Assembly (NCBI GenBank): GCA_041613275.1
Contig: JBFJHN010000001.1
Coordinates: forward strand, 1 to 47,631
Direction: 5' to 3'
Source: Candidatus Krumholzibacteriia bacterium
Lineage (GTDB): Bacteria > Krumholzibacteriota > Krumholzibacteriia > G020349025
DNA length: 47,631 bases
The stretch's first letter is position 1; the number at the start of each line of letters is the position of its first letter. The notes below the pieces were generated by a model. That model saw only the letters and a list, made by a program, of their open reading frames with translations, had not been told where the DNA came from and did no database searches. The translations under genes and the position numbers were made by a program. Shown piece by piece: positions 21,188 to 43,738 of the stretch.

Positions 21188-21381
21188 GCTGTAGCTCCCC
21201 CCATTGCTTGCACCCAAGCGATGTCTTCTTCGGTCGCGCGTCGCACGAGCGGGTCGTTGGCGGTTCCCACCTCTGCAGTGAATTGCTTGATGGCGGAGCG
21301 CTTGCTCCGGTACCAGCGGATGCCACAGCCGAGATCGCTCTGCACGTAGTAGGCGCGCAGTCCGTCCTTCGTGAGCTTCAC
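21184..21381 (-). CDS. hypothetical protein (65 aa)
   Basis: GTG 21381 overlaps the TGA of the DUF1257 gene (GTGA). Begins VKLTKDGLRAYYVQSDLGCGIRWYRSKRSAIKQFTAEVG... Confidence 0.5.
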   Translation of the reverse strand: MKLTKDGLRAYYVQSDLGCGIRWYRSKRSAIKQFTAEVGTANDPLVRRATEEDIAWVQAMGGATA

Positions 21382-21830
21382 CACGCACCCCCTTGCGAGA
21401 GCGTCAGCACGAGCGCGCCGTCTTCGTTGCGCTCTTCGTGCGTGACCGAGAACTCGTAGCCGATCGTCTCTTCGATGACGGCTTTCGCGTACTGCTGGCA
21501 CAGCTCGGAGCACTGCTTACCGACCTTCTCTTCGAGGCCGAAGCCGCCGCAGTAGAAGTCGTAAAGCAGCGTGTATCCCGGCTGTCCGTCGCGGCGCTTC
21601 ACGACGCCGATCTCGTACGCGTTCTTCTTGTCGGGAACGCGGAGCGCGTGCTCGCACTTGCCGAGATCGGTCGCCTTGAACCCATCCGGCAGCGGATAGT
21701 CGCCGACGTGGCGTCCGTACCAGCGGTACGTCTCTTTCCCTTCGGCGAACTCCAGGCCGCAGCGCTTGGCGGCAGTCTTGAGCGCGCTCAGGCTTGTGAT
21801 CTGAAGATTGACTTCGACGACGTGACTCAT
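21378..21830 (-). CDS. DUF1257 (Ycf35-like) family protein (150 aa)
   Basis: ATG 21830 overlaps the upstream stop, with an AGGAGG SD. MSHVVEVNLQITSLSALKTAAKRCGLEF...GYTLLYDFYCGGFGLEEKVGKQCSELCQQYAKAVIEE fits the DUF1257 pattern (MSH start, ..L.Q.YA.. C-terminal part). Confidence 0.75.
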   Translation of the reverse strand: MSHVVEVNLQITSLSALKTAAKRCGLEFAEGKETYRWYGRHVGDYPLPDGFKATDLGKCEHALRVPDKKNAYEIGVVKRRDGQPGYTLLYDFYCGGFGLEEKVGKQCSELCQQYAKAVIEETIGYEFSVTHEERNEDGALVLTLSQGGAW

Positions 21831-22513
21831 GCTGCGTCCTCCTGTCCGAGAATGGCGCATCGCGCCGCGTTCACTGAAGAGCGAGTGCCGACGTTGAGCA
21901 GGTCGTCGATCGTCTCTTGATTCGAGACGCGCGCGACGATCTGCTTGGCGATCTTGCGAGCCGACGCGACGGCGCGCTCGATCGAGCGCGCTTCTGGACT
22001 CTGCGCTTCGAGCACGCGGCTCGTCTGCTTGAGGCGGCTGGCGATGCGACGAATGTCTTTCACTTTGCCGGTCTCCATGGCGCGCTCCAGGTCGCGAAGC
22101 AGCTCGTCGAGTTCGGCGGCTACCGACTCGCGCGCTTCGCGATCGCTCTCGGCGATCTCGCCGCGAAGCACGCTGAAAGACACGTGGCTGTACTGCGCGC
22201 TGTCGTTGAACTCGGCGCACAGCGCTTGCGCTTCGGCGATCTTCTCGTCGAGCTGCTCGACGTTGTCGGTCGGGCAGATGATGCCGAACGGCGTCCAGAT
22301 GCTCACCGACTCGATGAGCGCACGCACGCGCGACTGCAGCTTCTTCGCCGCGTCGTACTCTTCGGCGTCGGTGATCTTGCGCTCGGTCTCCCACTTCGCG
22401 ATGTCGGTCGAGCCGTCGCGCTCGTGGTTGAGATCGACGCGCTCGTACTTGACGCCGCCGCGCAGCCGCGTCGACAACGCCACCAGCATGCCAGGGCGAA
22501 TCTTCTCGATCAT
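21827..22513 (-). CDS. hypothetical protein (228 aa), partly coiled-coil
   Basis: ORF-track 21827..22513, with ATGA overlaps at both ends. Begins MIEKIRPGMLVALSTRLRGGVKYERVDLNHERDGSTDIAKWETERKI... No motif recognised. Confidence 0.7.
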   Translation of the reverse strand: MIEKIRPGMLVALSTRLRGGVKYERVDLNHERDGSTDIAKWETERKITDAEEYDAAKKLQSRVRALIESVSIWTPFGIICPTDNVEQLDEKIAEAQALCAEFNDSAQYSHVSFSVLRGEIAESDREARESVAAELDELLRDLERAMETGKVKDIRRIASRLKQTSRVLEAQSPEARSIERAVASARKIAKQIVARVSNQETIDDLLNVGTRSSVNAARCAILGQEDAA

Positions 22514-22623
22514 GGTCTCTCTCCTTGGTCGTCAAGCGCGGCTTCGATGCCGCTGTCGCTCATCGTGAGCAGCGTTTCGAACGCTGCGCGGTAGCAGTCG
22601 CCGCTTCCGGTGGGGCCGCTCAT
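22510..22623 (-). CDS. micro-ORF (37 aa) coupled between AAA+ gene and 228-aa gene
   Basis: ATG 22623 overlaps the TGA of the AAA+ gene, and its own TGA overlaps ATG 22513. Sequence MSGPTGSGDCYRAAFETLLTMSDSGIEAALDDQGERP. Supported only by the double ATGA coupling. Confidence 0.4.
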   Translation of the reverse strand: MSGPTGSGDCYRAAFETLLTMSDSGIEAALDDQGERP

Positions 22624-24191
22624 TGGTCGAGCAGCGCGGCGCGCTGACTCCGCTTCGGTCGCGGCTTCTTCTTCTTGAGCGGCGTCGACGCCGGTCGCGT
22701 TCTGGACGACGCCCACTCGCGAAGGTCGGCGATGTCTGCCGCTCTCGACTTCGAGATCGGTGTCGTCGCGTCTGCGGCGGCGATGAGATCATCGGTCGAC
22801 AGCTCGCGCTCACCGTCTGCGAAAGCGCGGAACATGCCGCTCGGCACCAGCTCTGCTAGCTCTGCGCCGTTGAACTCGTGGCATGCGCTGACGACGGCTT
22901 CGAGATCGAAGTCGTCCGGGTTGCGCTTGAACTTCTTCAGCGTCGCTTCGAGAATCGCGACCGCTTCGACGTCGTTCGGCAAGTCCACGAAGAAGACGTC
23001 GTCGAACCGCCCCTTGCGGAACAGCTCTGGCGGCAGCGACGTGACGTCGTTCGCCGTGGCGATGACGAAGACCGGCTTCTCGTGCTCTTGCAGCCACGTG
23101 AGCACCGTTCCGAGAGCGTCGGAAGAGACGCCGCCGTCTTCGCGGCCCTTCGTGCTTCCGAGCGCTTTCTCGACTTCGTCGATCCAGAGCGCGCACGGCG
23201 CGACCGCTTCGGCGACGCGCAGCGCTTGGCGCAAGTTCGTCTCGCTGTCGCCGACGTACTTCGAGCGCAGCGCGCCGAAGTCCATGCGCAAGAGCGGGAT
23301 GTTCCACGCCGTAGGAATGGTCTTCGCGAGTAGCGACTTGCCGCATCCGGTCACGCCGAGCAGCAAGACGCCGCGCGGCGACGGCAGACCGTACGCGCGA
23401 GCCGACTCGGTGAGAGCCATCTTGCGCGACAGCGCCCACTCTTTGAACTCGTCGAGACCGCCGACCGCGTTCAGGCCGCGCGGGTCGGGGTCGAACCACG
23501 TGAGCACTTTCTCGCGGTCGATAATCTGGCGCTTCTGCTCGCTGACGACTTTCGGATCGACGACGCCGTCGCGCCTCTGCTTGCCGTTCATGGTCGCGAC
23601 GATCGAGTACGCGAAGGCCGACTCGGCGTCGATCGTGGTGAGTCCAGCGGCGGCGTCGACGACGTTCTCGCGTTCGCCGACGAGCTTCTTGCCGCTGAGC
23701 TTCAAGAAGTCATCGAGCAGCTCGCCGATCTGCTCGCGAGACGGAAGCGGCCATTCGATCGAGACCGTGCTCGGTCTCAGCGCTGGCGGGATGTCGCTCA
23801 CCGGAGTGAGCGCGACAACGGCGGCGAGCAGCTTCGGGTCGGATCCCTCTTGTAGATCGCGCGCAAGCGACTTCAGCATGCGCTCGATGCCGGGATCGCG
23901 CACCCACGGATGGACGTCGCGCAGAATCCATACTTCCTTGCGTGTGCGAGCGCGAATCCGCTTGACGACGTTCGGCAGTGACGGCGGTCCGTCTAGGTCG
24001 ACGGCGTCGCCGCTGTCGACTTCGGTCGCTCCGGTCGCGCAGTCCCACGCGATCGGCAAGTAGCCGCTCAGCTGCGCTTCGCGAGCGACCTCGTGCTCGA
24101 TGCGACGCTCTTCAGATGTAGTAATCCAGATGAACGTGTTCCGCGCTTTCAGATAGCAGCGGAAGCTCTTCTCCGGTTCGTTGGTCTTCAT
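22620..24191 (-). CDS. AAA+ ATPase, Ycf46-like (523 aa: ~250-aa N-domain plus classic-clade AAA module)
   Basis: Walker A GVTGCGKS, Walker B CALWIDEVEK, and IATANDVTSLPPELFRKGRFDDVFFVDLP (sensor-1/SRH). The whole C-terminal half parallels my recollection of cyanobacterial/plastid Ycf46. ATG 24191 was chosen because the upstream ORF-track extension is Arg-rich. Confidence 0.9.
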   Translation of the reverse strand: MKTNEPEKSFRCYLKARNTFIWITTSEERRIEHEVAREAQLSGYLPIAWDCATGATEVDSGDAVDLDGPPSLPNVVKRIRARTRKEVWILRDVHPWVRDPGIERMLKSLARDLQEGSDPKLLAAVVALTPVSDIPPALRPSTVSIEWPLPSREQIGELLDDFLKLSGKKLVGERENVVDAAAGLTTIDAESAFAYSIVATMNGKQRRDGVVDPKVVSEQKRQIIDREKVLTWFDPDPRGLNAVGGLDEFKEWALSRKMALTESARAYGLPSPRGVLLLGVTGCGKSLLAKTIPTAWNIPLLRMDFGALRSKYVGDSETNLRQALRVAEAVAPCALWIDEVEKALGSTKGREDGGVSSDALGTVLTWLQEHEKPVFVIATANDVTSLPPELFRKGRFDDVFFVDLPNDVEAVAILEATLKKFKRNPDDFDLEAVVSACHEFNGAELAELVPSGMFRAFADGERELSTDDLIAAADATTPISKSRAADIADLREWASSRTRPASTPLKKKKPRPKRSQRAALLDQ

Positions 24192-24289
24192 GGTTCGTTC
24201 TCTCTCTTGCCCTGCTTGCTTGACAAGCCGAAGCGAGCGCAGGTAACTTGCGCTTCGACGTCTCTCTCTCAATGATGCGTCAACGTTTT

Positions 24290-26393: not shown

Positions 26394-26423
26394 TTGACAG
26401 CGGCTTGTTCTATTGCGTATAGT
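26394..26423 (+). promoter_or_regulatory. near-consensus sigma70-type promoter TTGACA-N18-TATAGT for the rightward early operon
   Basis: -35 at 26394-26399 and -10 at 26418-26423. About 50 bp upstream of the AAGGAGG SD and ATG 26474. Confidence 0.6.
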
Positions 26424-30299: not shown

Positions 30300-30977
30300 G
30301 TGGCGAAGAAGAAGAAGTACCGAGTCTCAGAGCACAGCATCCACGAGTACACGTTCGACGAAGACAACCCGCGCAAGCGTGACGCGAAAGCTCGCTCAGC
30401 TCTTGAGCAGAGCTTGAGGCACTTCGGCGCTGTTCGCTCGCTTGGAGCAACGAAGGGCCGCGTCATCCGAGCAGGCAACGGCACGGCGCGTGCGGCTCTA
30501 GCTGGCGAGATCACCGAAGTGATTGAAGTTGAGACGGACGGCTCGCAGCTGGTCGTCGTGTACCGCCCCGATCTCGACGGTTCGAAAGCTGCGCTCTACC
30601 GCGAAGCCGACAACCGCGCTTCCGATCTCGCGACGTACGACTACGAGAGGCTCGCCGAAGAGCTGCGTCGCCGTGCGGAAGAAGCCGGAACGACGGAAGC
30701 GATCGAAGCTGTCGGATGGGAGCCGCATGAGCTTGCGCCGTTGCTCGGGGCGTGGACTCCGCAAGGAAAGACAAGCGAAGAATTCGTTGCGCAAAGCCCG
30801 CGACACTCGCGGTACTTTGTAGTGACGATGGAGCAGTACGAAGTCGTGATGCGCGCAGTCGAAGCAATGCGCCGCGTCGAAAGCGACGCGTCGATCAGCC
30901 CTGGCCGAGCAATGGAGCTGATTAGCGCCGACTACTTGTCTGGAGTGCAGATCGAAGAAGGAGGAGCGAGCGAATGA
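30300..30977 (+). CDS. ParB N-terminal-domain (ParB/Srx-like) protein, paralog 1; DpdB-like candidate
   Basis: FDEDNPRKRDAKARSALEQSLRHFGAVRSL..VIRAGNGTARAAL.. and YREADNRASDLATYDYERL fit the ParB-like nuclease-domain pattern. ATGA-coupled to queC. C-terminal motif GRAMELISADYLSG is shared with 36732..37211. Confidence 0.6.
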   Translation: MAKKKKYRVSEHSIHEYTFDEDNPRKRDAKARSALEQSLRHFGAVRSLGATKGRVIRAGNGTARAALAGEITEVIEVETDGSQLVVVYRPDLDGSKAALYREADNRASDLATYDYERLAEELRRRAEEAGTTEAIEAVGWEPHELAPLLGAWTPQGKTSEEFVAQSPRHSRYFVVTMEQYEVVMRAVEAMRRVESDASISPGRAMELISADYLSGVQIEEGGASE

Positions 30978-31753
30978 CGAATTTGACTCGAATCAGAGAG
31001 GAGTCAGCAAAGAGAAAAGCAGAGCGCGCGAAGCCAAACGTCGCCGTGCTTCTCAGCGGTGGACTCGACTCGACGTGTCTTCTTGCGTCTCTTGTTGCCG
31101 CGCGAGACGCATCAGGAGTGCGCCCATGCAGCGTGAGCGTCTACTACGGGCAGAAGCACGAGCGCGAGCTGCGAGCTGCACAGGCGGTCGCAGATTATTT
31201 CGGCATCCAGCACAAGACGATCTCGCTGTCCGATGCGCTTGAGCACCCTGGCTCAGCTCTGACAGACGACTGCGTCTCCGTTCCGCGCGGTCACTACGCA
31301 GCAGAGACGATGAAAGCGACAGTCGTGCCGCATCGGAATCTATTGATGCTGACAGCAGCGAGCGCGTTCGGGCTGAGCAGATTCGGCGTCTCAGCGGTCG
31401 CTTACGCAGCGCATGCGGGCGATCACCCTATCTACCCTGATTGTCGAGAGAGCTTCGTCGAAGCGGCTCGCAAGCTGCTCTCGCTGAGCGTTGACCGCGA
31501 GGTCGAGATCATCGCTCCGTACCTGAGCAAGACCAAGGGCGACATCGTGAAAGAAGGCGTGCTCTACAGTGCGCCATTTGCCCTCACGTGGAGCTGCTAC
31601 GAAGGCGGCGAGTACCACTGCGGCGAGTGCGGCACGTGCGTCGAGCGGCGCGAAGCGTTCCGGCTTGCTGGAGTACTCGACCCTACCGTCTACGCACGCG
31701 GCGCACGTGATCTCGACGAGTTGTTAGCGCTAGGCGAGAGTGACGCGCTCTGA
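30974..31753 (+). CDS. queC: 7-cyano-7-deazaguanine (preQ0) synthase QueC
   Basis: PP-loop LLSGGLDST, YGQKHERELRAA, VVPHRNLLML, IYPDCRESF, and the Zn site SCYEGGEYHCGECGTCVERREAF. Confidence 0.9.
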   Translation: MTNLTRIREESAKRKAERAKPNVAVLLSGGLDSTCLLASLVAARDASGVRPCSVSVYYGQKHERELRAAQAVADYFGIQHKTISLSDALEHPGSALTDDCVSVPRGHYAAETMKATVVPHRNLLMLTAASAFGLSRFGVSAVAYAAHAGDHPIYPDCRESFVEAARKLLSLSVDREVEIIAPYLSKTKGDIVKEGVLYSAPFALTWSCYEGGEYHCGECGTCVERREAFRLAGVLDPTVYARGARDLDELLALGESDAL

Positions 31754-31771
31754 GAAGGAGCTTTCGACGCC

Positions 31772-32530
31772 GTGAGTGAGTTCTATTTTGCCTGGGTAGG
31801 GTCGGCTATCGAGACAACGATGAAGAACTGGGACTGGCACTCGAAGCCTCTGAACATCCTGGCCGCGATGCCATACGCGAGGTCATACAAGCAATTCGTA
31901 GACAAGACAGGTTTCAAGGCTCGCGCAACGATCCTTGATTCGGGGGCGTTCAGCGCTTACGCCTCTGGCGCGCCGACAGACATCGACGCCCTGATCTGCG
32001 AAGCCCGAACAGAAGCGTGGAACGAAGTCGTGGCGCTTGACGTCATCGGTGACAGCGCCGCCTCGCGCGAGAACGCTCTCGCGATGAGAGCTGCCGGTCT
32101 CGAAGTGATGCCGGTCTTCCACTACGGCGAGCCGTGGGAGCTGCTGTCGGAGTATTGCAGCAAGTTTCACCGGGTAGGTATCTCGTGCCGCTTCGGGGAG
32201 CCGAAAGGCGACGCGCTGCGATGGGTTGATCAGTGCTTCGCGCGAGAGTGGCCCAAACTCTTCCACTCGTTTGGGTGGGTCTCTCGCGAAGTCCTTCTTG
32301 CGGTGCCGTTTGACAGCGCGGATTCTGGAGCGTGGACAAGCAGCTTGAGGTTCGGCATTTGGCATGGGTACGGGCGAAGAAACCTGGGCTATCGTGTCAA
32401 AGCTAAGGATCATGACGCGCGGGTTGACGTTCAGCATTTTTGGGGATTGCAAGAAGAGCTGCGTGGGACGTGGGGCGCGATGCTTCGCGAGCCGCGCGCA
32501 GCCAAGGAGAGAGAGAATGAATCGAAGTGA
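31772..32530 (+). CDS. dpdA: DpdA-like DNA 7-deazaguanine transglycosylase (TGT superfamily, short phage type)
   Basis: ILDSGAFSAY, FHSFGWVS and FDSADSGAWTS correspond to the alDSGgFs / HgFGvK / saDSmaWs blocks I recall from phage DpdA proteins. Embedded among the que genes. GTG 31772 lies 11 nt after AAGGAG. Confidence 0.75.
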   Translation: MSEFYFAWVGSAIETTMKNWDWHSKPLNILAAMPYARSYKQFVDKTGFKARATILDSGAFSAYASGAPTDIDALICEARTEAWNEVVALDVIGDSAASRENALAMRAAGLEVMPVFHYGEPWELLSEYCSKFHRVGISCRFGEPKGDALRWVDQCFAREWPKLFHSFGWVSREVLLAVPFDSADSGAWTSSLRFGIWHGYGRRNLGYRVKAKDHDARVDVQHFWGLQEELRGTWGAMLREPRAAKERENESK

Positions 32531-32957
32531 AGAAGTCGAGCACCTTGGCAGACCGTCGACGGCGTCGATCGAGCTGCCGCAAGCCGTGCGCTTCGAGCAG
32601 ACGCCGAAACCGCTGGACGGTGGCGGCGCTGGCTTTCGGGTCACGCTGAACTGTCGAGAGTTCACGAGCCGTTGCCCGGTGACAAGTCAACCGGACTACG
32701 CAGAGCTGCGAATCGAATACGAGCCGCGCGGCACGATCATCGAGACGAAGTCGCTCAAGCTCTACCTGCAGAAGTTTCGTGACCGCGCAGCGTTCAACGA
32801 AGAACTGTGTCAAGCGATCTGCGACGAGCTGTTCGCGCTGCTCGCGCCCGGCATGCTCTCAGTCGAGATGAGCTTCGCGCATCGCGGCGGCATCAGCGTG
32901 AACCCGAAAGCCGTTCGGTGGACGGATGACGACGAAGAAGAGCGAGTCGCGCCGTGA
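32517..32957 (+). CDS. queF: NADPH-dependent preQ0 reductase QueF (unimodular type)
   Basis: ATG 32517 after AAGGAGAGAGAGA, overlapping the dpdA end by 14 nt. Catalytic-Cys motif SRCPVTSQPDY and NADPH motif ETKSLKLYLQKFR. Confidence 0.8.
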   Translation: MNRSEEVEHLGRPSTASIELPQAVRFEQTPKPLDGGGAGFRVTLNCREFTSRCPVTSQPDYAELRIEYEPRGTIIETKSLKLYLQKFRDRAAFNEELCQAICDELFALLAPGMLSVEMSFAHRGGISVNPKAVRWTDDDEEERVAP

Positions 32958-33415
32958 GCAAGCTCACGTGCACGCGCCGCCTGCAGTGGTGCATGGGCCA
33001 TCGGCTCGTCGGTCACGAAGGGAAGTGCTCGATGCTCCACGGACACAACTACGTCGGCCTGTTCGAAGCGTCGGCGAACGATCTTGACGACGTCGGCAGG
33101 GTGATCGACTTTTCTGTGCTGAAAGAGCGCATCGGTGGATGGATTGAAGAGCGATGGGATCACGGCTTCTTGCTAGCAGAAGGCGACGTTTCCGGTATGG
33201 CGGCGCTCGCGACGCTCGAAGAGCTTCAGCGAGCCGAAGGCGAGCGCCCGCAGAAGTCGGCGTTCTTGCCCTACAACCCGACCGCTGAGAACATCGCGCG
33301 CTATCTCGGCGAGCACGTCTGCGCGAATGTGCTCGCAGACGTCGGCGTGCGCGTCGATCGCGTGACGGTGTGGGAGACCGAGAACTGCTTCGCGACCTGG
33401 GAGCGCAGCCGATGA
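32954..33415 (+). CDS. queD: 6-carboxy-5,6,7,8-tetrahydropterin synthase QueD
   Basis: GTGA overlap. GHRLVGHEGKCSMLHGHNY (CxxxHGH motif) and ..DHGFLL.. with the TVWETENCFA end, typical of the PTPS/QueD fold. Confidence 0.85.
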   Translation: MSKLTCTRRLQWCMGHRLVGHEGKCSMLHGHNYVGLFEASANDLDDVGRVIDFSVLKERIGGWIEERWDHGFLLAEGDVSGMAALATLEELQRAEGERPQKSAFLPYNPTAENIARYLGEHVCANVLADVGVRVDRVTVWETENCFATWERSR

Positions 33416-33696
33416 AGCACTCGAAGCGCGCGACAGAGATCGCGAACGACATTTTCAACCGGTACCCGGACTTGGTCGCGACGTACACGTCGAATAACTT
33501 CGGAGCAGTGCGCTTGTTCGATGCCGTCGCCGCCGCTCTCGAAGAAGCCATGATTCGAACGGCTCAAGAGTGCGAGCGCCGCATCAGCGGCATGAGCCGA
33601 CTCGGCGTGCGTGGCGGCGATCGTGGTGCCGACGAGATGCGCACCGTAGCCGCTGGCATCTGTCGGAGCGTCGCCGATGACGCGCGGAAGCGATGA
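33412..33696 (+). CDS. hypothetical protein (94 aa) inside the deazaguanine cluster
   Basis: ATGA overlap with queD. Begins MKHSKRATEIANDIFNRYPDLVATYTSNNFGAVRLFDAV... No motif recognised. Confidence 0.6.
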   Translation: MKHSKRATEIANDIFNRYPDLVATYTSNNFGAVRLFDAVAAALEEAMIRTAQECERRISGMSRLGVRGGDRGADEMRTVAAGICRSVADDARKR

Positions 33697-33913
33697 GCAG
33701 CTCGGCCTGGAGCTTGTCGAGCCGAGTCCGTGCCAAGCGGGCGACGTCGTTCGCTGGCACGAGAGCATCTTCAATTTATACCCGGCAAGCGGCGTCGTCG
33801 TCGTGGTCGACAGCGCGCGCCGCGCGGCGAGTGTCGAGCGTGCCGGTCGACTCGTCGACGTGCCGCTGTCGAGAATCGAAGGGGTCGTGAAATGCGCGAA
33901 GAGTTCCCCATAA
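33677..33913 (+). CDS. hypothetical protein (78 aa) inside the deazaguanine cluster
   Basis: ORF-track 33677..33913. Overlaps its neighbours by 20 and 22 nt. Composition is better than the competing Ser/Arg-rich frame 33693..33890. Confidence 0.5.
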   Translation: MTRGSDEQLGLELVEPSPCQAGDVVRWHESIFNLYPASGVVVVVDSARRAASVERAGRLVDVPLSRIEGVVKCAKSSP

Positions 33914-34398
33914 GCATCACCGCGAGCAGCCCGCGCGTCGACACGCTGCGTCGAGCGCGACTGAGACTGCTCGACGAACTGTCCGAGCGCGGCAAGGGCA
34001 CGTGCCCATGCTGCGGACGGATCGCGCGGTATCGGCGCGTGGCTCTCTCAAGCGGTCTCGCGTGGTTTCTCATCCGTCTCTACAAGCTCGGACTTTTCTC
34101 GGATGGTCGATGGGTGCACTACTCGGACGCGGTCTCTCGCGGCTCGAAAAAGCTCGGCGGCTTGAGCTACGGCGATCTGCGACACTGGAAGCTCATCGAG
34201 CCGCGCTACGACGCGAAGCCGGGGCAATGGCGACTGACGCATCACGGCAAGCTCTTCGTCAACGGAGAGCGCTCGGTCGAGAAGCGGCTTCTCATCTTCG
34301 ACGGCAAGGTGCGCAAGCGGAGCGAAGAGACGACCACCATCAAGCAAGCGCTCGGCACGCGCTTCGACTATGACGATCTGATGAAGGGGGTTCTGTGA
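33892..34398 (+). CDS. zinc-ribbon plus winged-helix-like protein (168 aa) inside the deazaguanine cluster
   Basis: ATG 33892. GKGTCPCCGRIARYRRVALSSGLAWFLIRLYKL...YGDLRHWKLIEP...GQWRLTHHGKLFVNG recalls a phage family of putative DNA-binding proteins (from memory). Confidence 0.6.
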   Translation: MREEFPISITASSPRVDTLRRARLRLLDELSERGKGTCPCCGRIARYRRVALSSGLAWFLIRLYKLGLFSDGRWVHYSDAVSRGSKKLGGLSYGDLRHWKLIEPRYDAKPGQWRLTHHGKLFVNGERSVEKRLLIFDGKVRKRSEETTTIKQALGTRFDYDDLMKGVL

Positions 34399-35189
34399 GC
34401 GACAAGACGTACAGAGTGAATGAAGTCTTCTATAGCGTGCAGGGCGAGGGCGCGCTCGTCGGCACGCCGATGGTCTTCATCCGCCTCTCGCGGTGCAACC
34501 TGCGCTGCTCGATGGAACCGGGCGAGAAGTCCCCTGGCGGCTTCGACTGCGACACGGAGTTCGAGAGCGGTCGGCGACTGACGCTCGGCGAGATTCTCGG
34601 CGAAGTGCTCGAAGCGCTCGACGAAGGACTCGCGAGCGTCGCTGGCTTGGTCGGAGTCTTGCGCTCTGGAGAGATCGAGCTGCACGGCTTGCATCCTTGG
34701 CTCTTGCTGACTGGCGGCGAGCCAGCTCTACAAGTCGACACCGAGTTCTGCGAGTACTTCCGCTCGCGCGGCTTTCGGCTCGCGATCGAGACGAACGGCT
34801 CGATGCTGCTGCCGAAGCGCGAGATGGGCGCTCTGTGGCGACCGCCAGACATGTGCATCGACGACGAGCTGACGCGCTTCCCGTTCGACCACATCACCGT
34901 CTCGCCGAAAGTCGCCGAGCATGCCGTGCGCCAGCTCTACGCGCACGAGCTGCGCTACGTGAGAGCGCACGGTCAGTCGATCCCCGAGCCGCGCTGCCAA
35001 GCTCTGCAGAGGTTCATTAGTCCGGCGTGGTCTGCCGAGAGCGCGCGACCGTTCGAAGGGCTCACTGCAGCAGACTCGCGCTTGAGTCGCGAGACGCGCG
35101 ACAACGCTTCGTGGTGCGTCGATCTTGTGAAGTCTAACCCCGACTGGCGACTCTCGCTGCAGACTCACAAGCTGCTCGGAGTGCGGTGA
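34395..35189 (+). CDS. queE: 7-carboxy-7-deazaguanine synthase QueE (radical SAM)
   Basis: GTGA overlap. YRVNEVFYSVQGEGALVGTPMVFIRLSRCNLRCSMEPGEKSPGGFDCDTEF, then LLLTGGEPAL, IETNG and ITVSPK. Confidence 0.85.
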   Translation: MSDKTYRVNEVFYSVQGEGALVGTPMVFIRLSRCNLRCSMEPGEKSPGGFDCDTEFESGRRLTLGEILGEVLEALDEGLASVAGLVGVLRSGEIELHGLHPWLLLTGGEPALQVDTEFCEYFRSRGFRLAIETNGSMLLPKREMGALWRPPDMCIDDELTRFPFDHITVSPKVAEHAVRQLYAHELRYVRAHGQSIPEPRCQALQRFISPAWSAESARPFEGLTAADSRLSRETRDNASWCVDLVKSNPDWRLSLQTHKLLGVR

Positions 35190-35812
35190 TGAACGACGCC
35201 GGTTACAGGCGCTTTCCGAAGCTCACTGAGCACCAGCTCACGCAGCTGACAGAGAAAGCAATTGAGGGCGTCGGCGCGCTCATCTGTCTGTGCAAGGGCG
35301 AGCCGAAGTTTCGGCACTCCGTTCTCGAAGAGACGCGGCTGCGCGTCGTGCGCGCGCTGATCGAGATGGGGCGCGGCTACGAAGAGCGGCCCGAAGACAT
35401 TCTCTCGAAGACGTTCGAAGCCGACGCCGATGAGATCATCGTCGTGAGCGACATTCGCTTCTCGTCGCTCTGCGAGCACCACCTAATGCCCTTCGTCGGC
35501 GCGTGCCACGTCGGCTACTTGCCGGGGGAGTCTGGACGCGTCGTCGGCTTGTCGAAGATTCCGCGACTCGTCGAGTGCTTCGCTCGGCGACTGCAGCTCC
35601 AAGAGCGTCTGACGCGCGAGATCGCGCAAGCGCTGGTCGACTGTCTCGACGTTGCCGGAGCTGGCGTCGTGATGCGCGCCGAGCACTCGTGCACGGCTTG
35701 TCGCGGCGTGCGCAAAGAGGGGTCGTCGATGGTGACGAGCGCAATGCTCGGTCGCTTCCGAGAAGACGAGGGTGCGCGCTTCGAGCTTCTGCGGCTCATG
35801 GAGATTCGATGA
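35186..35812 (+). CDS. folE: GTP cyclohydrolase I (FolE type)
   Basis: SDIRFSSLCEHHLMPFVGACHVGYLP..VVGLSKIPRLVECFARRLQLQERLT..VMRAEHSCTACRGV. Start is GTG 35186 (GTGA) or ATG 35189. Confidence 0.95.
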   Translation: MMNDAGYRRFPKLTEHQLTQLTEKAIEGVGALICLCKGEPKFRHSVLEETRLRVVRALIEMGRGYEERPEDILSKTFEADADEIIVVSDIRFSSLCEHHLMPFVGACHVGYLPGESGRVVGLSKIPRLVECFARRLQLQERLTREIAQALVDCLDVAGAGVVMRAEHSCTACRGVRKEGSSMVTSAMLGRFREDEGARFELLRLMEIR

Positions 35813-36249
35813 AGACGGCGATCGTCGGTGAGTGCCGAGAGCAGAGCGCGCGCTCGATCGAGCTGCTCGCTCGCGTCGCATGGACCGATGCGGCGACTGT
35901 ACGCGAGAGGGCGCCGTGCTTCGACTTGCTGCGCAGCGAGAGCTTCAAGATGATCGACGGACGGCTCGCCGCGCGCGAGCTGCGCTCGGAGCTTGAAGGG
36001 CTGCGCGTCGTCTTGCTCGGCTCGCGTGTCGCTCGGTGCTTCAACGTGACGCCGCCACAAGACGCACCAGCGCTGTTCTTGTGGCGCTTCGGCGTGAAGC
36101 TCTACGGACGCGCGACCGAGTCCGTCGCCGTCGTCACGAGCCGCGCTGACAGCGTGTGGTACGGCGAAGCCGCCGAGCAAGCGAGCGCGTTCGTGCGGAG
36201 CGCTCTCGGCATGAAGGTCGAGCAAGAGCGGCAGAGAAAGATCTTGTGA
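35809..36249 (+). CDS. hypothetical protein (146 aa) coupled to folE
   Basis: ATGA overlap with folE. MKTAIVGECREQ...LRVVLLGSRVARCF faintly recalls the UDG-superfamily layout (IVGE.P ... vvLLG..A). Very weak. Confidence 0.55.
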   Translation: MKTAIVGECREQSARSIELLARVAWTDAATVRERAPCFDLLRSESFKMIDGRLAARELRSELEGLRVVLLGSRVARCFNVTPPQDAPALFLWRFGVKLYGRATESVAVVTSRADSVWYGEAAEQASAFVRSALGMKVEQERQRKIL

Positions 36250-36329
36250 TCCCGAAACCGGATGGGGTAGCGTGAAACGAACCAGCGAGCGCGCAAGACT
36301 GAGCGCACGCACAACCAGGGAGAGAGAGA

Positions 36330-36728
36330 ATGGTCAACAAAGTATTTCTCGTCGGCTATCTCGGCGGCGATCCAGACGTGCGGTCGACGCCGAACGGCAA
36401 GCCGGTCGCGACGTTCTCCGTCGCCACAAGCCAGAAATGGCGCGACCGAGACGGCAACCGCCAAGAGAAAACAGAGTGGCACTCCGTCGTCTGTTGGGAG
36501 CGGAACGCGGAAGTCGCCGGTCAGTACTTGACGAAGGGCCAGCTCGTACACGTCGAGGGGCGGATCGAGACGCGCTCGTGGGAAGACAAGCAGACCGGCG
36601 ACAAGCGGTACAAGACGGAAGTCATCTGCGACCGCTTTCAGATGCTCGGCGGTGGCTCGCGCAGCACCGAAGAGCGAGAGCGCACGGCGAACTACCGAGA
36701 CGACGACGAAGACGACATTCCGTTCTAG
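36330..36728 (+). CDS. ssb: single-stranded DNA-binding protein
   Basis: MVNKVFLVGYLGGDPDVRSTPNGKPVATFSVATSQKWRDRDGNRQEKTEWHSVVCW OB-fold pattern with an acidic C-terminal tip DDDEDDIPF. Confidence 0.95.
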   Translation: MVNKVFLVGYLGGDPDVRSTPNGKPVATFSVATSQKWRDRDGNRQEKTEWHSVVCWERNAEVAGQYLTKGQLVHVEGRIETRSWEDKQTGDKRYKTEVICDRFQMLGGGSRSTEERERTANYRDDDEDDIPF

Positions 36729-36731
36729 CTC

Positions 36732-37211
36732 GTGGGCTGGCGTTCAAAGCGGATCCCCGTCGTCTCTCTGCTCGTGCCGATTCAGCGGAGAGTGAGCAAG
36801 ACGCTGCTCACGATCGCAGAGCGCGAGTTGCGCTCCGGCAAGTACCTACCGCCGCGCGTGAGAGAGAAGGGCGATGGCATGGCCGAAGTCGTGCGCGGCG
36901 AGTACGTCGTGCTCGCGGCGAGACAGCTCGGCGTCTCCGAGCTGCGCGTGCTCGTGTGTGTCGCTGGCGACGACGGACCGCCGATGAGCAAGCCGGTCTT
37001 TTTGACTTCCGAGCAGAGACCCATCTTCGACGCCGCCGCACGGCGCGTGCGAGAGATCGAGGGCGACGAGTCGCTTCGAGACGGTCGCTGCTTGGAGCTG
37101 ATTTGCGCAGACTTCTTGAGCGGCGCTGGATGGCCCGAAAAGCGGCTCGTAAGCCACGAAGCGCCGTCAGGGGTGGCTCGGTATGTGTCCGAGCCGGATC
37201 GTACGGAATAG
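36732..37211 (+). CDS. ParB N-terminal-domain protein, paralog 2
   Basis: RIPVVSLLVPIQRR...LPPRV...EVVRGEYVVLAARQLGVSELRVLVCV is ParB-box-like. C-terminal FLTSEQRPIFDAAARRVREIEGDESLRDGRCLELICADFLSG parallels VVTMEQYEVVMRAVEAMRRVESDASISPGRAMELISADYLSG of 30300..30977. Confidence 0.55.
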   Translation: MGWRSKRIPVVSLLVPIQRRVSKTLLTIAERELRSGKYLPPRVREKGDGMAEVVRGEYVVLAARQLGVSELRVLVCVAGDDGPPMSKPVFLTSEQRPIFDAAARRVREIEGDESLRDGRCLELICADFLSGAGWPEKRLVSHEAPSGVARYVSEPDRTE

Positions 37212-40666: not shown

Positions 40667-41536
40667 ATGCCGCGCAAGAAGAAGTTCACAGCTCCAGCGA
40701 CCGAGCAAGACCGTGGCAAGCGCGACACGTATCTAGTCGAGACCGGCAAGTGCGGACGCCGCACGCGGCGTTGGAAGGCGAGCGTGAGACCGGCGAAGCT
40801 GCCGTACTGCACGAACGCTGCTGGAGCTGGAACGGACCACCCCGGCGACGGTGCTTGCTGGCAGCACGGCGGCAGAGTGCCGCGCGGCGTCGACTCTCCC
40901 GCGTTCGGCGTCAAGCACCAGGACGGCGAAGAAGTACCGGCGAAGAGTCCCGGCAAGTACTCCGTCATTCGCGCGGCTCTGCCGGAGAACTGGCGCGCTG
41001 CGTACGACGAAGCGAAGAGCGATCCGCGCCGCTTCACGTTCGACCGGAACGTGCAAGTGCTGAGCGGCGCGCTGGTCGATTCCCTGGAGCGTGCAGCCGA
41101 AGCCGATCCCGGCAAGATCATCGACGGCGTGCGAGAGCAGATGCGAGCCGCGCGCGCCGCATCCGAGAGCGGCGATCTCGACGGCTTGCTTTTGGCGGTT
41201 ACGCGCATCGAGACGCTCGTCAGCGACAAAGAGGCGGTGCCGAAATGGTCGAAAGCCGTCGACCAAGTCGTCGACGTGCTGAAAGAGATTCGCTACACGG
41301 TGCGAGACGAGAACAAGCGGCAGCACGAAGAGCGGCTCGTGGTGACGCAAGAGCAGCTCGCTCTGATCTCGATGCGCTGGATCGCGATTCTTGAGCAGCG
41401 ACTTCTCGCGCCCGACGTGATCGCGGCTCTCGGAGAGAAGGAAGCACGCAAGCTCTTGCTCGGCATCGCGCAAGACTGCGACGCGGAACAGAAGAGTCGA
41501 GCCTGGGGTCCACGGCTCGTGGAAGCGTCAGCGTGA
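40667..41536 (+). CDS. putative small terminase subunit or other DNA-binding late protein (Cys..HGG motif)
   Basis: 289 aa. N-terminal basic region plus CGRRTRRWKASV..LPYCTNAAGAGTDHPGDGACWQHGGRVP, a motif I recall from phage proteins often annotated TerS by synteny. Helical C-terminus. Two genes separate it from TerL, so the assignment is weak. Confidence 0.35.
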   Translation: MPRKKKFTAPATEQDRGKRDTYLVETGKCGRRTRRWKASVRPAKLPYCTNAAGAGTDHPGDGACWQHGGRVPRGVDSPAFGVKHQDGEEVPAKSPGKYSVIRAALPENWRAAYDEAKSDPRRFTFDRNVQVLSGALVDSLERAAEADPGKIIDGVREQMRAARAASESGDLDGLLLAVTRIETLVSDKEAVPKWSKAVDQVVDVLKEIRYTVRDENKRQHEERLVVTQEQLALISMRWIAILEQRLLAPDVIAALGEKEARKLLLGIAQDCDAEQKSRAWGPRLVEASA

Positions 41537-41555: not shown

Positions 41556-41933
41556 ATGAAAAGGGCCAGTCTTTTGATTCTCGTCGCCGTGGCTATTGCC
41601 ACGGCAGGATGTTCGCAGCTGCAGCCGTTGCTCCCCGGCTTCTCACCGATCGACAACGAAACATGCGCGGGCGCGCGGCTCGTGGTCGATCTCGTCTGTC
41701 CGGTGGTAGCGGAGACCGGCAGCATGCTCTCTGCTCGCGACGTCGGCGAGTCGTGCGGCACGGTGATGCTGTTTGACATGGCAGAGCGCCGTCGCTCCGT
41801 GAGCACCGATTCGGAGCTGATGCGCAAGAGCGCGACGCGCACCGTCGTGCGGACGCCGACCGGCGAGAAGTTCACGGTCCCGCTCTCGTTCGACCGAGTG
41901 AACGCCGAGTTCGACGAGCATCGCTGTCGATGA
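41556..41933 (+). CDS. lipoprotein (125 aa; lipobox IATAG|C)
   Basis: AAAGGAG SD. MKRASLLILVAVAIATAGCSQ.. is a signal peptidase II-type signal. Five further Cys in the mature part. Confidence 0.7.
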   Translation: MKRASLLILVAVAIATAGCSQLQPLLPGFSPIDNETCAGARLVVDLVCPVVAETGSMLSARDVGESCGTVMLFDMAERRRSVSTDSELMRKSATRTVVRTPTGEKFTVPLSFDRVNAEFDEHRCR

Positions 41934-43738
41934 AACAGCATCGCGTCTCGATGTGGGGCGAGCCGATCGACGGCCTCGTTCAAGGATTCCCGCAAGCGGC
42001 TGCGTGGTGCGCTCGCCACGGCATCGGAACGAAGCTGCACGTGCAGGCGGTTCGTCTGCTGAATAGGAAGTGGCTCAGTGATCCGGTGACGCGTTTCATG
42101 CAAGAGCGCGCCGATGACATCTACGGCGTCGCCACGAATCGGCAGTGTGTCGAATGGTGCGCGAGGAAAGCAGTACCGCTCGTCGTCTGCGTTTCGCACT
42201 TCCGCCCCGGTTCGCCCGGCGGTCGAGTCGGCTACAACGACGAAGCGTTCAGAGTCACCGACGCCGAGTTCGCGCTCGCTTGCTCACTGGCAGAGAGAGA
42301 GGCGCTACGGCTTCACGTGCTCGACGACCGGCTCGTCATCCAGATTGAGAATGAGCCGTTCGCCGGGAACGCTGCGTACGAGCTTGACGAGTACGACGAT
42401 CGGTGGATGGCGGCAGTCGATGCCGTCGACGAAGCGGAAGTTCTGATTCGAGACGTCACCACATCAACGCGCATCACCGAAGGGCGACACTTCGCGATTC
42501 CCGATGCGTTCTCTCTGGAGCAAGTCGCGCAGGGTGTGACGCAGCGACGTCGCGGCACGAACGGCCCACGGTTCGCTCTCGACGAGTTCTGGCTCGCGCG
42601 CGGCCGAGAAGACAGCGAGCGCTCAGCGGCTCAGTACCGCACGGCTCTCGCGCAAGCAGAGCGCGAAGGGTCGATCGTGACCGGATTCTTCGTCGGTCAC
42701 GAAGGGCAGAGTGCCGGTCTGCGGTGGGGCGCTGCGACGTACTACACGACGGCATGGGGGGACGGCGCGATGACAGCGATCGGCAGGGCGCTCGATGAAC
42801 TGTTCCAGCACGAGACCCCGGTTCCGATCGTGCCGACTCCACAGCCGAAGCCGGACGTGCATACGCGAACGAAGATCGCTCGCGCTCTCGATGCGATCGA
42901 GTCGCTGCTCGTGCGGCGGCAGAGCGCCAAGATGCCGAAGCGCGACAAGTGGGAAGAGACGTCGTTCTTGCGCGACGGCGATCTCGGCTCGCTCCGCGTG
43001 TCGATCGAGACGGTGCGCGGCTGGCTCGCGAGCGTGTCGAACAGACCGAGCCAAGCCGAGACGCGCCAAGCGCTGCGCGAGCTTGAGTCGATGCGCCACG
43101 AGATCGAGTCGCGCGTCGGCAAAGTGCCGAACAGGAAGAAGCGCAAGTCGACCGCTGCTCTCAGGAGCGGCGACGTCGATGACGTCATCGAGACGCTCGA
43201 AGACTTGGAGCTGCTCATCGCTTCGCTCACCTTCGCCGACGACAAGCCAGCGCCGCCGACGCCGCTCCCGCCAGGGCGACCGGACGACCAGCTGCCGAGC
43301 GACGGTGGCGCGCAGTTCTCCGAAGACGACCTCGCGGCTGTGTCCATGCTGATGCAAGATGAGCGCGTTCATCTCGCATGCTTGCGCCGCCGCAACCACT
43401 GGGAGATTCGTCACCGGAACACGGAGGGCGGCGAGCCATCCGCACCGATCCGAGAGGCGACGATCTCCGCTGCGTACTCTCGCTACAAGCGCGAGCGCTT
43501 CGGAGTTACGCTGACGAGACCTCCGCACCAGCTCTCGCGCGACGAAGTCGCAGCGCTCGCTGCGCTGTGGAACGTGCCGCTCGACAACCCGCGAGCCGTT
43601 CGGTGGGAGAGGGATTACACCGAAGTCGACTACATCGACCGAGACGGCGAGCACGCGGGCGGCGCGAGTGACAGTGCGCGGTGGGGGCGAGGCGAACTCG
43701 TCGAGCCGGTGAAGCATCTCGTGCGAGCGCTGTCGTGA
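41930..43738 (+). CDS. large hypothetical protein (602 aa); N-terminal ~280 aa possibly a clan GH-A-like glycosidase barrel
   Basis: ATGA overlap with the lipoprotein gene. VIQIENEPFAGNAAYE (NEP acid/base-type motif) and RFALDEFWLARG (candidate nucleophile strand). The C-terminal half (coil, Pro-rich linker, unknown domain) is unassigned. Confidence 0.6.
   Translation: MKQHRVSMWGEPIDGLVQGFPQAAAWCARHGIGTKLHVQAVRLLNRKWLSDPVTRFMQERADDIYGVATNRQCVEWCARKAVPLVVCVSHFRPGSPGGRVGYNDEAFRVTDAEFALACSLAEREALRLHVLDDRLVIQIENEPFAGNAAYELDEYDDRWMAAVDAVDEAEVLIRDVTTSTRITEGRHFAIPDAFSLEQVAQGVTQRRRGTNGPRFALDEFWLARGREDSERSAAQYRTALAQAEREGSIVTGFFVGHEGQSAGLRWGAATYYTTAWGDGAMTAIGRALDELFQHETPVPIVPTPQPKPDVHTRTKIARALDAIESLLVRRQSAKMPKRDKWEETSFLRDGDLGSLRVSIETVRGWLASVSNRPSQAETRQALRELESMRHEIESRVGKVPNRKKRKSTAALRSGDVDDVIETLEDLELLIASLTFADDKPAPPTPLPPGRPDDQLPSDGGAQFSEDDLAAVSMLMQDERVHLACLRRRNHWEIRHRNTEGGEPSAPIREATISAAYSRYKRERFGVTLTRPPHQLSRDEVAALAALWNVPLDNPRAVRWERDYTEVDYIDRDGEHAGGASDSARWGRGELVEPVKHLVRALS

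Follow-up and report, generated by a model that had tools for sequence, protein, structure and literature searches.

A predicted self-contained DpdA1-type 7-deazaguanine DNA-modification module with a ParB-like neighbour in an uncultured siphovirus-like phage

The stretch of DNA analysed here, contig JBFJHN010000001.1 of assembly GCA_041613275.1, is a whole 47,631-bp contig with a GC content of 63% (hereafter the window), and the subject of this work is a cluster of 7-deazaguanine synthesis and DNA-modification genes at positions 30300–36249. The window encodes a siphovirus-like gene set comprising a prohead protease, major capsid protein, tail tube, tape measure, portal and large terminase, and this gene content suggests a complete-looking genome of an uncultured siphovirus-like tailed phage, which was also seen repeatedly in Logan metagenome runs of the SRR292574xx series. 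The cluster is located in a replication module with the order ERF recombinase, HTH_36 initiator, DnaC-like loader, deazaguanine cluster, single-stranded DNA-binding protein (SSB) and RusA. We consider it probable that the cluster forms a self-contained DpdA1-type DNA-modification module that would place 7-aminomethyl-7-deazaguanine (preQ1) in DNA as dPreQ1, with a ParB-like protein as partner and with four further open reading frames (ORFs) in the row, here called u1–u4, dispensable for modification.

The eleven ORFs form a single row on the + strand in the order ParB-like, QueC, DpdA, QueF, QueD, u1, u2, u3, QueE, FolE and u4 (all features below are on this strand unless marked otherwise). 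An earlier, sequence-only reading of the region had placed the same ORFs at the same positions, and this gene row was recovered in full together with every motif it had quoted from the translations; its description of the junctions as mostly 4-nt overlaps is accurate for six of the ten, which are ATGA/GTGA overlaps, and inaccurate for the other four, which are one 18-nt gap and overlaps of 14, 20 and 22 nt. GC content at codon positions 1, 2 and 3 was about 0.65, 0.47 and 0.75–0.84 in all eleven ORFs, u1–u4 included, which is a coding pattern, and a public protein collection holds identical cluster proteins with identical start codons. Codon-position GC ruled out a rival frame at 33693–33890 and the upstream extensions 33730–33891 of u3 and 35503–35808 of u4, while a longer QueF start was ruled out by the ribosome-binding site ahead of 32517 and a longer u1 start by the 4-nt ATGA overlap at 33412, in both cases together with matching public gene calls.

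Related loci were collected with a profile scan of IMG/VR, from which the best 80 of 319 DpdA relatives were kept; together with loci from other look-ups these gave 93 loci (referred to by L numbers), with copies of the window phage (L007–L012, covering ~24–44 kb of the window) excluded. Hidden Markov models (HMMs) were used to scan them for DpdA, ParB-like, QueF and u3 homologues and phmmer for the remaining genes. A DpdA relative occurs in 92 of the 93, and the DpdA and QueF core of the window was found in at least 16 environmental (IMG/VR or metagenome) loci. Two of these, L022 and L014, have the window's gene order of ParB, QueC, DpdA, QueF, QueD, QueE and FolE with u1–u3 missing.

Four of the cluster enzymes are predicted to convert guanosine triphosphate (GTP) to 7-cyano-7-deazaguanine (preQ0). 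FolE, GTP cyclohydrolase I (35186..35812), matched PF01227 (3.3e-58, 196.5 bits) and NF006826 (196.1 bits against a cutoff of 162). QueD, 6-carboxytetrahydropterin synthase (32954..33415), matched PF01242 (1.3e-25) and carries the C-x3-H-G-H signature (CSMLHGH), not the DpdL pattern L-x3-H-R-H-x-F; its TIGR03367 score of 62 bits is under the cutoff of 89. QueE, a putative radical S-adenosylmethionine 7-carboxy-7-deazaguanine synthase (34395..35189), fell below the cutoff of every NCBIfam QueE model (best TIGR04508, 6.5e-30, 104 against 240) and aligned with Burkholderia multivorans QueE (PDB 4NJG, 3.6e-22) across the N-terminal QGEG motif, the cluster loop and the C-terminal QTHK motif. Its cysteine triad (residues ~34–52) has an unusual C-x3-C-x13-C spacing (CNLRC...CDT), which lies between the canonical C-x3-C-x2-C pattern and the C-x14-C-x2-C seen in the Burkholderia QueE that is its best-aligning match. 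QueC, the preQ0 synthase (30974..31753, 259 aa), scored 161.2 bits with TIGR00364 (cutoff 150.3) and 1.2e-51 with PF06508, and possesses the QueC/PP-loop domain alone with no glutamine amidotransferase domain, which identifies it as QueC and not Gat-QueC.

The fifth enzyme, QueF (32517..32957), is a predicted unimodular preQ0 reductase that depends on reduced nicotinamide adenine dinucleotide phosphate (NADPH) and has preQ1 as product. Its ATG start is preceded by a strong ribosome-binding site (AAGGAGAGAGAGA), and the protein scored 101.8 bits with TIGR03139 against a cutoff of 86.9. The best PDB match was the NADPH-dependent QueF of B. subtilis (4F8B, 3.3e-20, 76 bits), compared with only 6e-6 and 30 bits for QueF-L (5JYX). 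Gapless alignment to 4F8B, numbered from the ATG at 32517, places C53, D60 and E95 on Cys55, Asp62 and Glu97, and the NADPH motif E76-T-K-S-L-K-L-Y (the Glu78 motif) is kept with Thr as its second residue in place of the Ser/Leu of E(S/L)K(S/A)hK(L/Y)(Y/F/W). By these sequence characters the window QueF is of the free-base reductase type and not a QueF-L amidinotransferase.

The protein at 31772..32530 (252 aa) is, judged from its sequence, clearly a phage DpdA of subfamily DpdA1, with the predicted activity of a DNA guanine transglycosylase and with a minimal modelled triosephosphate isomerase (TIM) barrel that lacks the zinc subdomain. It matched phrog_887 ('queuine tRNA-ribosyltransferase', 6.5e-28), and tblastn recovered 229 phage records, among which the DpdA1 proteins of 9g, CAjan, Rosebush and phiSM showed 25–35% identity (E 1e-9 to 1e-15); MAFFT aligned it end to end with those of CAjan, Rosebush and phiSM. 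The AlphaFold2 model is a confident (beta/alpha)8 barrel with a predicted local distance difference test score (pLDDT) of 93, and in BFVD it best matches phage proteins that carry the annotation queuine tRNA-ribosyltransferase or DpdA (template modelling score, TM, 0.58–0.86), with nt-1 DpdA2 and a phiST protein further down the list. Residues D56, D90 and D184 are invariant across 39 family members and, by motif and spacing, D56/F60 (F60 four residues past D56), D90 and D184 correspond to Asp95/Phe99, Asp130 and Asp256 of Salmonella bDpdA, for which roles in general acid/base catalysis, stacking, base recognition and as the nucleophile, respectively, have been described (PMC10164549). The catalytic residues occupy the same motifs in CAjan, Rosebush and phiSM. 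The zinc motif C-x-C-x2-C is absent from the window protein and from the 12 DpdA1 relatives checked. As phiSM DpdA1 has 240 aa, the small size is normal for the subfamily. Tandem DpdA paralogues, two or three in number, were observed in L001:7989-11431, L013:9959-13109, L015:9213-10924, L025:5997-8765 and L035:7902-9529, with three copies and no QueF in both L001 and L013; such paralogues suggest that a single phage may introduce two or more bases or work on two or more targets.

No homologue of DpdM (PF03692/DUF3109), DpdN (PF00551), ArcS (PF17884) or DpdC was found in the window by Pfam searches of 55 ORFs and gene calls, and neither Gat-QueC nor a methyltransferase homologue is encoded there. 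Searches by phmmer with the phiSM and L015 DpdM proteins recovered homologues in L023 and none in the copies of the window phage (L007–L012). Phages with DpdA and QueF that lack a tailoring enzyme carry dPreQ1, as in Dp-1 and HVTV-1, and immuto_2-6A, which adds DpdN, carries fdPreQ1 (PMC6884629, PMC10516641). Phage QueFs can stand in for the E. coli enzyme in a queF deletion, and the free base preQ1 is a substrate of VH7D DpdA2 for insertion (PMC6884629, PMC10516641). With no known tailoring enzyme in the window and with this DpdA/QueF precedent, dPreQ1 is therefore the expected modification, and we infer it from the presence of QueF, the absence of known tailoring enzymes and a DpdA loop that covaries with QueF (see below).

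Much of the sequence-only reading withstood these searches. It had proposed a complete GTP-to-preQ1 pathway, and all five enzymes matched their own families, with QueE below the NCBIfam cutoffs and placed by 4NJG; it had called QueF reductase-type, which agrees with the TIGR03139 score above cutoff, the retained NADPH motif and the failure of the protein to group with QueF-L. The missing ArcS and Gat-QueC signatures were borne out across the window and extend to DpdM and DpdN, and its predicted product, dPreQ1, is what gene content leads one to expect given the precedents of Dp-1, HVTV-1 and phiSM. Two features lie beyond it, namely the ParB-like gene as a conserved neighbour of this DpdA clade and the QueF-linked loop of DpdA.

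In the mechanism we propose, FolE, QueD, QueE and QueC would produce preQ0 from GTP, QueF would reduce free preQ0 to preQ1 with NADPH, and DpdA would swap guanine for preQ1 in double-stranded phage DNA after replication. The exchange would follow a double displacement like that of tRNA-guanine transglycosylase (TGT), in which D184 would act as the nucleophile and D56 as the general acid/base, with the base stacked against F60 and H165. The ParB-like protein would load or position DpdA on DNA, as a counterpart of the ParB-like DpdB on which bacterial DpdA depends, and dPreQ1 would blunt host restriction.

The loop that follows DpdA strand 134–138 (residues S138-C-R-F-G-E143, codons at 32183..32200) is a candidate pocket for the 7-substituent and thereby for preQ1 specificity. 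It reads G-(L/I)-S-C-R-(F/L)-G-E in all 17 DpdAs of this clade from QueF-positive loci, the window included, and SCRxGE occurs in none of 83 DpdAs from QueF-negative loci; most of the latter read GG(L/M/V)(V/A), as do CAjan, Rosebush, EC151 and Erebus, and eight of them have other variants, such as AS-GHGA. Weak QueF HMM matches in L001, L013, L046, L047 and L052 were not counted, as they turned out to be T-fold cross-matches on FolE. In the QueF-positive loci L015 and L025, one DpdA copy has SCRxGE and the second paralogue is GG-type. A DpdA tree, calculated by neighbour joining only and built without the loop residues, did not recover the SCRxGE proteins as monophyletic in any of 100 bootstrap replicates, and they were interleaved with GG-type clades; some share 52% identity with a GG-type protein and only 32% with other SCRxGE proteins. 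Dp-1 and phiSM, with measured dPreQ1, have 'ISPAND' at the loop, where CAjan and Rosebush, which insert preQ0, have 'GG(L/M)V'.

Alignment by hhalign with Zymomonas mobilis TGT (query verified identical to PDB 1ENU) paired S138-C139 with G229-G230, R140 with A232, F141 with V233, G142-E143 with G234-E235 and H165 with M260, so that the DpdA loop falls at the TGT position G-G-L-A-V-G-E. In TGT the Leu231/Ala232 peptide, together with Glu235, recognises the aminomethyl group of preQ1, and Val233 sets the size of the pocket for the 7-substituent. The SCRFGE loop may thus be a specificity loop that adapts DpdA to preQ1, and such an adaptation would favour insertion of free preQ1 over reduction of preQ0 within DNA.

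The latter is the substance of the best-surviving alternative, in which DpdA inserts preQ0 and QueF acts later on DNA-bound dPreQ0, or acts only partly, to give dPreQ0 or a mixture of dPreQ0 and dPreQ1. Most assayed DpdAs insert preQ0, the exception being VH7D DpdA2, which prefers preQ1 and inserts preQ0 at ~1/5 efficiency, and the closest relatives of the window DpdA in the neighbour-joining tree, L001 and L013, have no QueF. Complementation shows, however, that phage QueFs act on the free base, the window QueF keeps its NADPH motif and groups with the free-base reductases and not with QueF-L, and a QueF is always accompanied by a changed pocket loop in DpdA, as would be expected for a different base. 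We regard preQ0 insertion as unlikely on this balance, and insertion of free preQ1 is the reading carried forward.

The first gene of the row (30300..30977) encodes a 225-aa ParB-like protein with an N-terminal ParB/Srx domain and a conserved C-terminal helical domain (phrog_620, 1.9e-15); its family profile matched the ParB N-domain of PDB 7BNK at 3.8e-14. A homologue detected with the same HMM was present in 24 of the 28 loci with the best-scoring DpdA, and in no more than 6 of the other 58. Both genes occur together in 33 loci, on the same strand without exception and less than 300 bp apart in 24; near-duplicates among these loci make the number of independent cases somewhat smaller. The family adjoins DpdA in three different genomic settings, those of Rosebush (gp1), Cracklewink (gp1) and phiSM (gp51), and is absent from CAjan, EC151 and Erebus. 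Because bacterial DpdA requires the ParB-like ATPase DpdB and phiSM DpdA1 expressed alone is inactive in E. coli (PMC10516641), it is plausible, by analogy, that the ParB-like protein is a DpdB-like accessory partner of this DpdA clade. The claim is that the protein may work like DpdB, not that it would be a DpdB orthologue. The idea is not entirely new, as the CRB2 genome paper suggested in passing that ORF1 is a possible dpdB homologue; ParB is nowhere mentioned in the two principal papers on phage deazaguanines.

A second, shorter protein sharing the ParB-like C-terminal domain (..GR.LELICADFLSG) is encoded at 36732..37211 and was identified by tblastn and HMM cross-matches and by alignment; the consensus of the shared domain is ..T.EQR..VDRA...VR......EGRA.ELICADFLSG, and counterparts of this protein occur near the cluster in L014:1313-1723, L024:10824-11735 and L036:5050-5559. 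A fusion of ParB and DpdA was looked for and not found: the long DpdA relatives (336–430 aa) carry no ParB domain and no ORF with both domains was found in 92 loci. In BFVD, A0A6J5RUN9, a 424-aa 'ParB/Sulfiredoxin' of an uncultured phage, gave a weak structural match to the DpdA barrel (E 5e-3, TM 0.46, rank 37) and could on this model comparison represent a fused ParB-DpdA protein; a fusion of this kind would speak for a functional link.

Several observations weigh against the interpretation of the cluster given above. For DpdA, no match was obtained in Pfam (including the TGT family PF01702), NCBIfam or PADLOC, so that the earlier assignment of 31772–32530 to the TGT/DpdA family stands for DpdA, through phrog_887 and similarity to DpdA1, and fails for TGT as defined by Pfam. 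A profile of the 39-sequence family found neither TGT nor DpdA among PDB sequences, and the same was true of CAjan DpdA; Foldseek with the DpdA model returned generic TIM barrels only, neither TGT nor DpdA being among the first 50 PDB matches. The TGT alignment that locates the loop has an E value of 0.32 and is not significant alone, with a register that agrees with the flanking catalytic motifs. In QueF, Asn replaces B. subtilis His96, a position that holds Gln in phiSM, Asn in L014 and Cys in L015, and phiSM QueF complements an E. coli queF deletion (PMC10516641). In the ParB-like protein, the cytidine triphosphate-binding box GERRxRA reads GNGTxxAA in the family consensus, with both arginines gone, no NCBIfam or PADLOC match to DpdB and no detectable similarity to it were found, and A-G-N-G-T stands where DGQQR/DGQHR is expected. 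The DpdA1 proteins of CAjan and 9g work without any ParB-like partner, and ParBc proteins also flank unrelated phage DNA-modification genes. A stronger joint claim, in which the SCRFGE loop switches DpdA1 from preQ0 to preQ1 insertion and the ParB-like neighbour is an obligate DpdB-like cofactor, is offered tentatively, as a proposal with somewhat less than an even chance of being right.

The four embedded ORFs had been proposed in the sequence-only reading as specificity, targeting or further-modification factors, and this proposal did not hold up. None of u1–u4 has a homologue in the 93 other loci, with permissive thresholds included, L022 and L014 show the same order without u1–u3, and the u3 family occurs elsewhere. 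The proteins u1 (33412..33696, 94 aa, basic), u2 (33677..33913, 78 aa) and u4 (35809..36249, 146 aa, basic) have no detectable relatives, and no match was found for them in Pfam (E up to 10), PHROGs, PADLOC, phage records or related loci; u4 also had no PDB match. All three carry a coding signature in GC content at the third codon position (GC3), which favours the u2 frame over 33693–33890 and reaches 0.84 in u4. Word-index protein searches returned near-identical copies only, for u4 among 5.8 billion proteins and likewise for u3. A comparison of u4 with family-4 uracil-DNA glycosylase, as a possible degenerate member, aligned 14 columns only (hhalign probability 0.4%) and was rejected.

The remaining ORF, u3 (33892..34398, 168 aa), matched phrog_2693 (5.8e-24) and combines a CPCC zinc ribbon, a winged helix and a small beta domain in an AlphaFold2 model of pLDDT 88.6; judged from this model it probably binds DNA. 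The phrog_2693 family yielded 2987 representative matches, and 233 of its 240 phage records are Mycobacterium phages, in which it lies away from deazaguanine genes. An enzyme fold for u3 was rejected, as PDB gave just weak winged-helix matches (E 0.19 or worse), and so was DpdM (hhalign probability <1%). The best cultured-phage match of u3 is in Mycobacterium phage CRB2 (MK059749.1:48182-48565), whose DpdA lies 47 kb off at 651–1169, and their co-occurrence in CRB2 is no neighbourhood link. In L014 a further unrelated gene, for a 536-aa pectate-lyase-fold protein (PF12708), stands inside the operon between QueC and DpdA (L014:3229-4839).

These ORFs are central to a second alternative, in which dPreQ1 is an intermediate and u1, u2 or u4, possibly guided or targeted by the winged-helix u3, makes an undescribed preQ1 derivative; virion DNA would then contain a base outside the eight 7-deazaguanines described so far. 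The ORFs lie inside the operon with translationally coupled junctions, DpdM provides a precedent as an originally unassigned ORF of the phiSM cluster, immuto_2-6A has fdPreQ1 instead of dPreQ1, and u1, u2 and u4 have no relatives, so that homology rules out no function for them. On the other side, none of the four occurs in other DpdA loci, including 16 with the same DpdA and QueF core, u1–u3 are, by comparison with L022 and L014, inserted after QueD and ahead of QueE, the non-enzymatic-looking u3 fold is widespread and occurs in phages that lack DpdA, and no cofactor-binding or catalytic motif or enzyme-family match was found in u1–u4. A new derivative is accordingly considered very improbable, and the joint loop-and-cofactor proposal is both likelier and less radical. 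The most economical reading of the sequence comparisons is that u1–u4 are lineage-specific passengers, dispensable for modification by preQ1.

The least probable account, to which we give hardly any credence, is that the cluster has an auxiliary metabolic role in the queuosine metabolism of host tRNA, or is inactive, and that phage DNA is unmodified: its genes are homologous to tRNA-pathway enzymes and phiSM DpdA1 is inactive in E. coli, but all tested phages with DpdA and deazaguanine synthesis genes have modified DNA, the transglycosylase is DpdA1-like and not a tRNA TGT, and no ORF is disrupted, the coding signature is strong and the catalytic residues are invariant.

Outside the cluster, the large terminase showed at most 36% identity to anything in phage records or GTDB genomes, with no close cultured relative, and megablast of the 6-kb cluster region against 50,697 phage records returned zero matches. 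No tRNA genes, terminal direct repeat or integrase domain were found in the window. A promoter-like site (TTGACA-18-TATAGT, 26394..26423, 11 of 12 consensus positions) precedes the replication and modification row and is the sole one in 26–40 kb, yet shuffled sequence yields about one as well, which makes it weak evidence; terminator-like sites were fewer than in shuffled sequence. A leftward block at 21378–24272 (− strand) encodes a 550-aa AAA+ ATPase (PF00004, 1e-27) and a 385-aa protein with a weak DUF1257 match, and two ORFs just upstream of the large terminase (40667–41536 and 41930–43738, 289 and 602 aa) gave zero Pfam or PHROG matches. An antisense ORF of 149 aa (36102–36551, − strand) passes a simple GC3 filter but runs across the 3' end of u4 and the first part of the SSB gene, which is itself well supported; most likely this is a shadow ORF produced by high GC.

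In summary, the cluster belongs to a populous and already described kind of phage anti-restriction system, and the DpdA1 and QueF type is extended here to an uncultured siphovirus-like phage of 63% GC. The six-residue DpdA loop may offer a handle on preQ0/preQ1 switching, a question left open by Cui et al. 2023 (PMC10516641). A ParB-like partner, if true, could explain the inactivity of phiSM DpdA1 alone and would link the phage systems to bacterial DpdA/DpdB.

Comparison with known systems places the window closest to six loci from IMG/VR and Logan (L022, L014, L026, L028, L031 and L036), which share its DpdA subclade (40–49% identity), SCRxGE loop, ParB-like neighbour and enzyme set and, unlike the window, have none of u1–u4. 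An extra DpdM homologue occurs in L015 and L023 and an extra GG-type DpdA paralogue in L015 and L025, and the window has neither. Cellulophaga phage phiSM, the DNA of which contains dPreQ1 and mdPreQ1 (Cui et al. 2023, PMC10516641), resembles the window in its short DpdA1 without zinc motif (240 against 252 aa), the ParB-like gene beside DpdA/QueC, the full FolE-QueD-QueE-QueC-QueF set, a unimodular QueF lacking His96, the location in the replication module and the presence of small embedded ORFs. It differs in that DpdA identity is ~30%, DpdM is present, the loop reads ISPANDTHE instead of ISCRFGE, gene order is different and the embedded ORFs are unrelated. Rosebush and CAjan, which are preQ0 inserters with dPreQ0 in their DNA (Hutinet et al. 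2019, PMC6884629), have in common with the window a DpdA1 that aligns over the whole barrel, the motifs DSGAFS, LD.IGD, FH.G, H.FG and DS..W and a complete preQ0 pathway; Rosebush also has its ParB-like gp1 directly upstream of DpdA, whereas CAjan has no ParB-like neighbour. In contrast to the window, both lack QueF and have a GG(L/M)VG loop and a longer DpdA (306–385 aa).

More distant are the bacterial Dpd system and tRNA-modifying TGT. The former (Gedara et al. 2023, PMC10164549) likewise pairs a transglycosylase with a ParB-superfamily protein and has the three catalytic Asp residues and the stacking aromatic, but its DpdB carries DGQQR, its DpdA has a C-x-C-x2-C...H zinc site and insertions, DpdC and the restriction genes DpdD-K accompany it, and its base is preQ0 or 7-amido-7-deazaguanine (ADG) compared with the preQ1 predicted for the window. 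Z. mobilis TGT (1ENU) differs from the window DpdA by its zinc subdomain, N-terminal lid and tRNA substrate and gave no significant sequence or Foldseek match to it, and the two proteins have in common the TIM barrel (as modelled for DpdA), the same order of catalytic and pocket elements and a loop-end G-E that corresponds to G234-E235.

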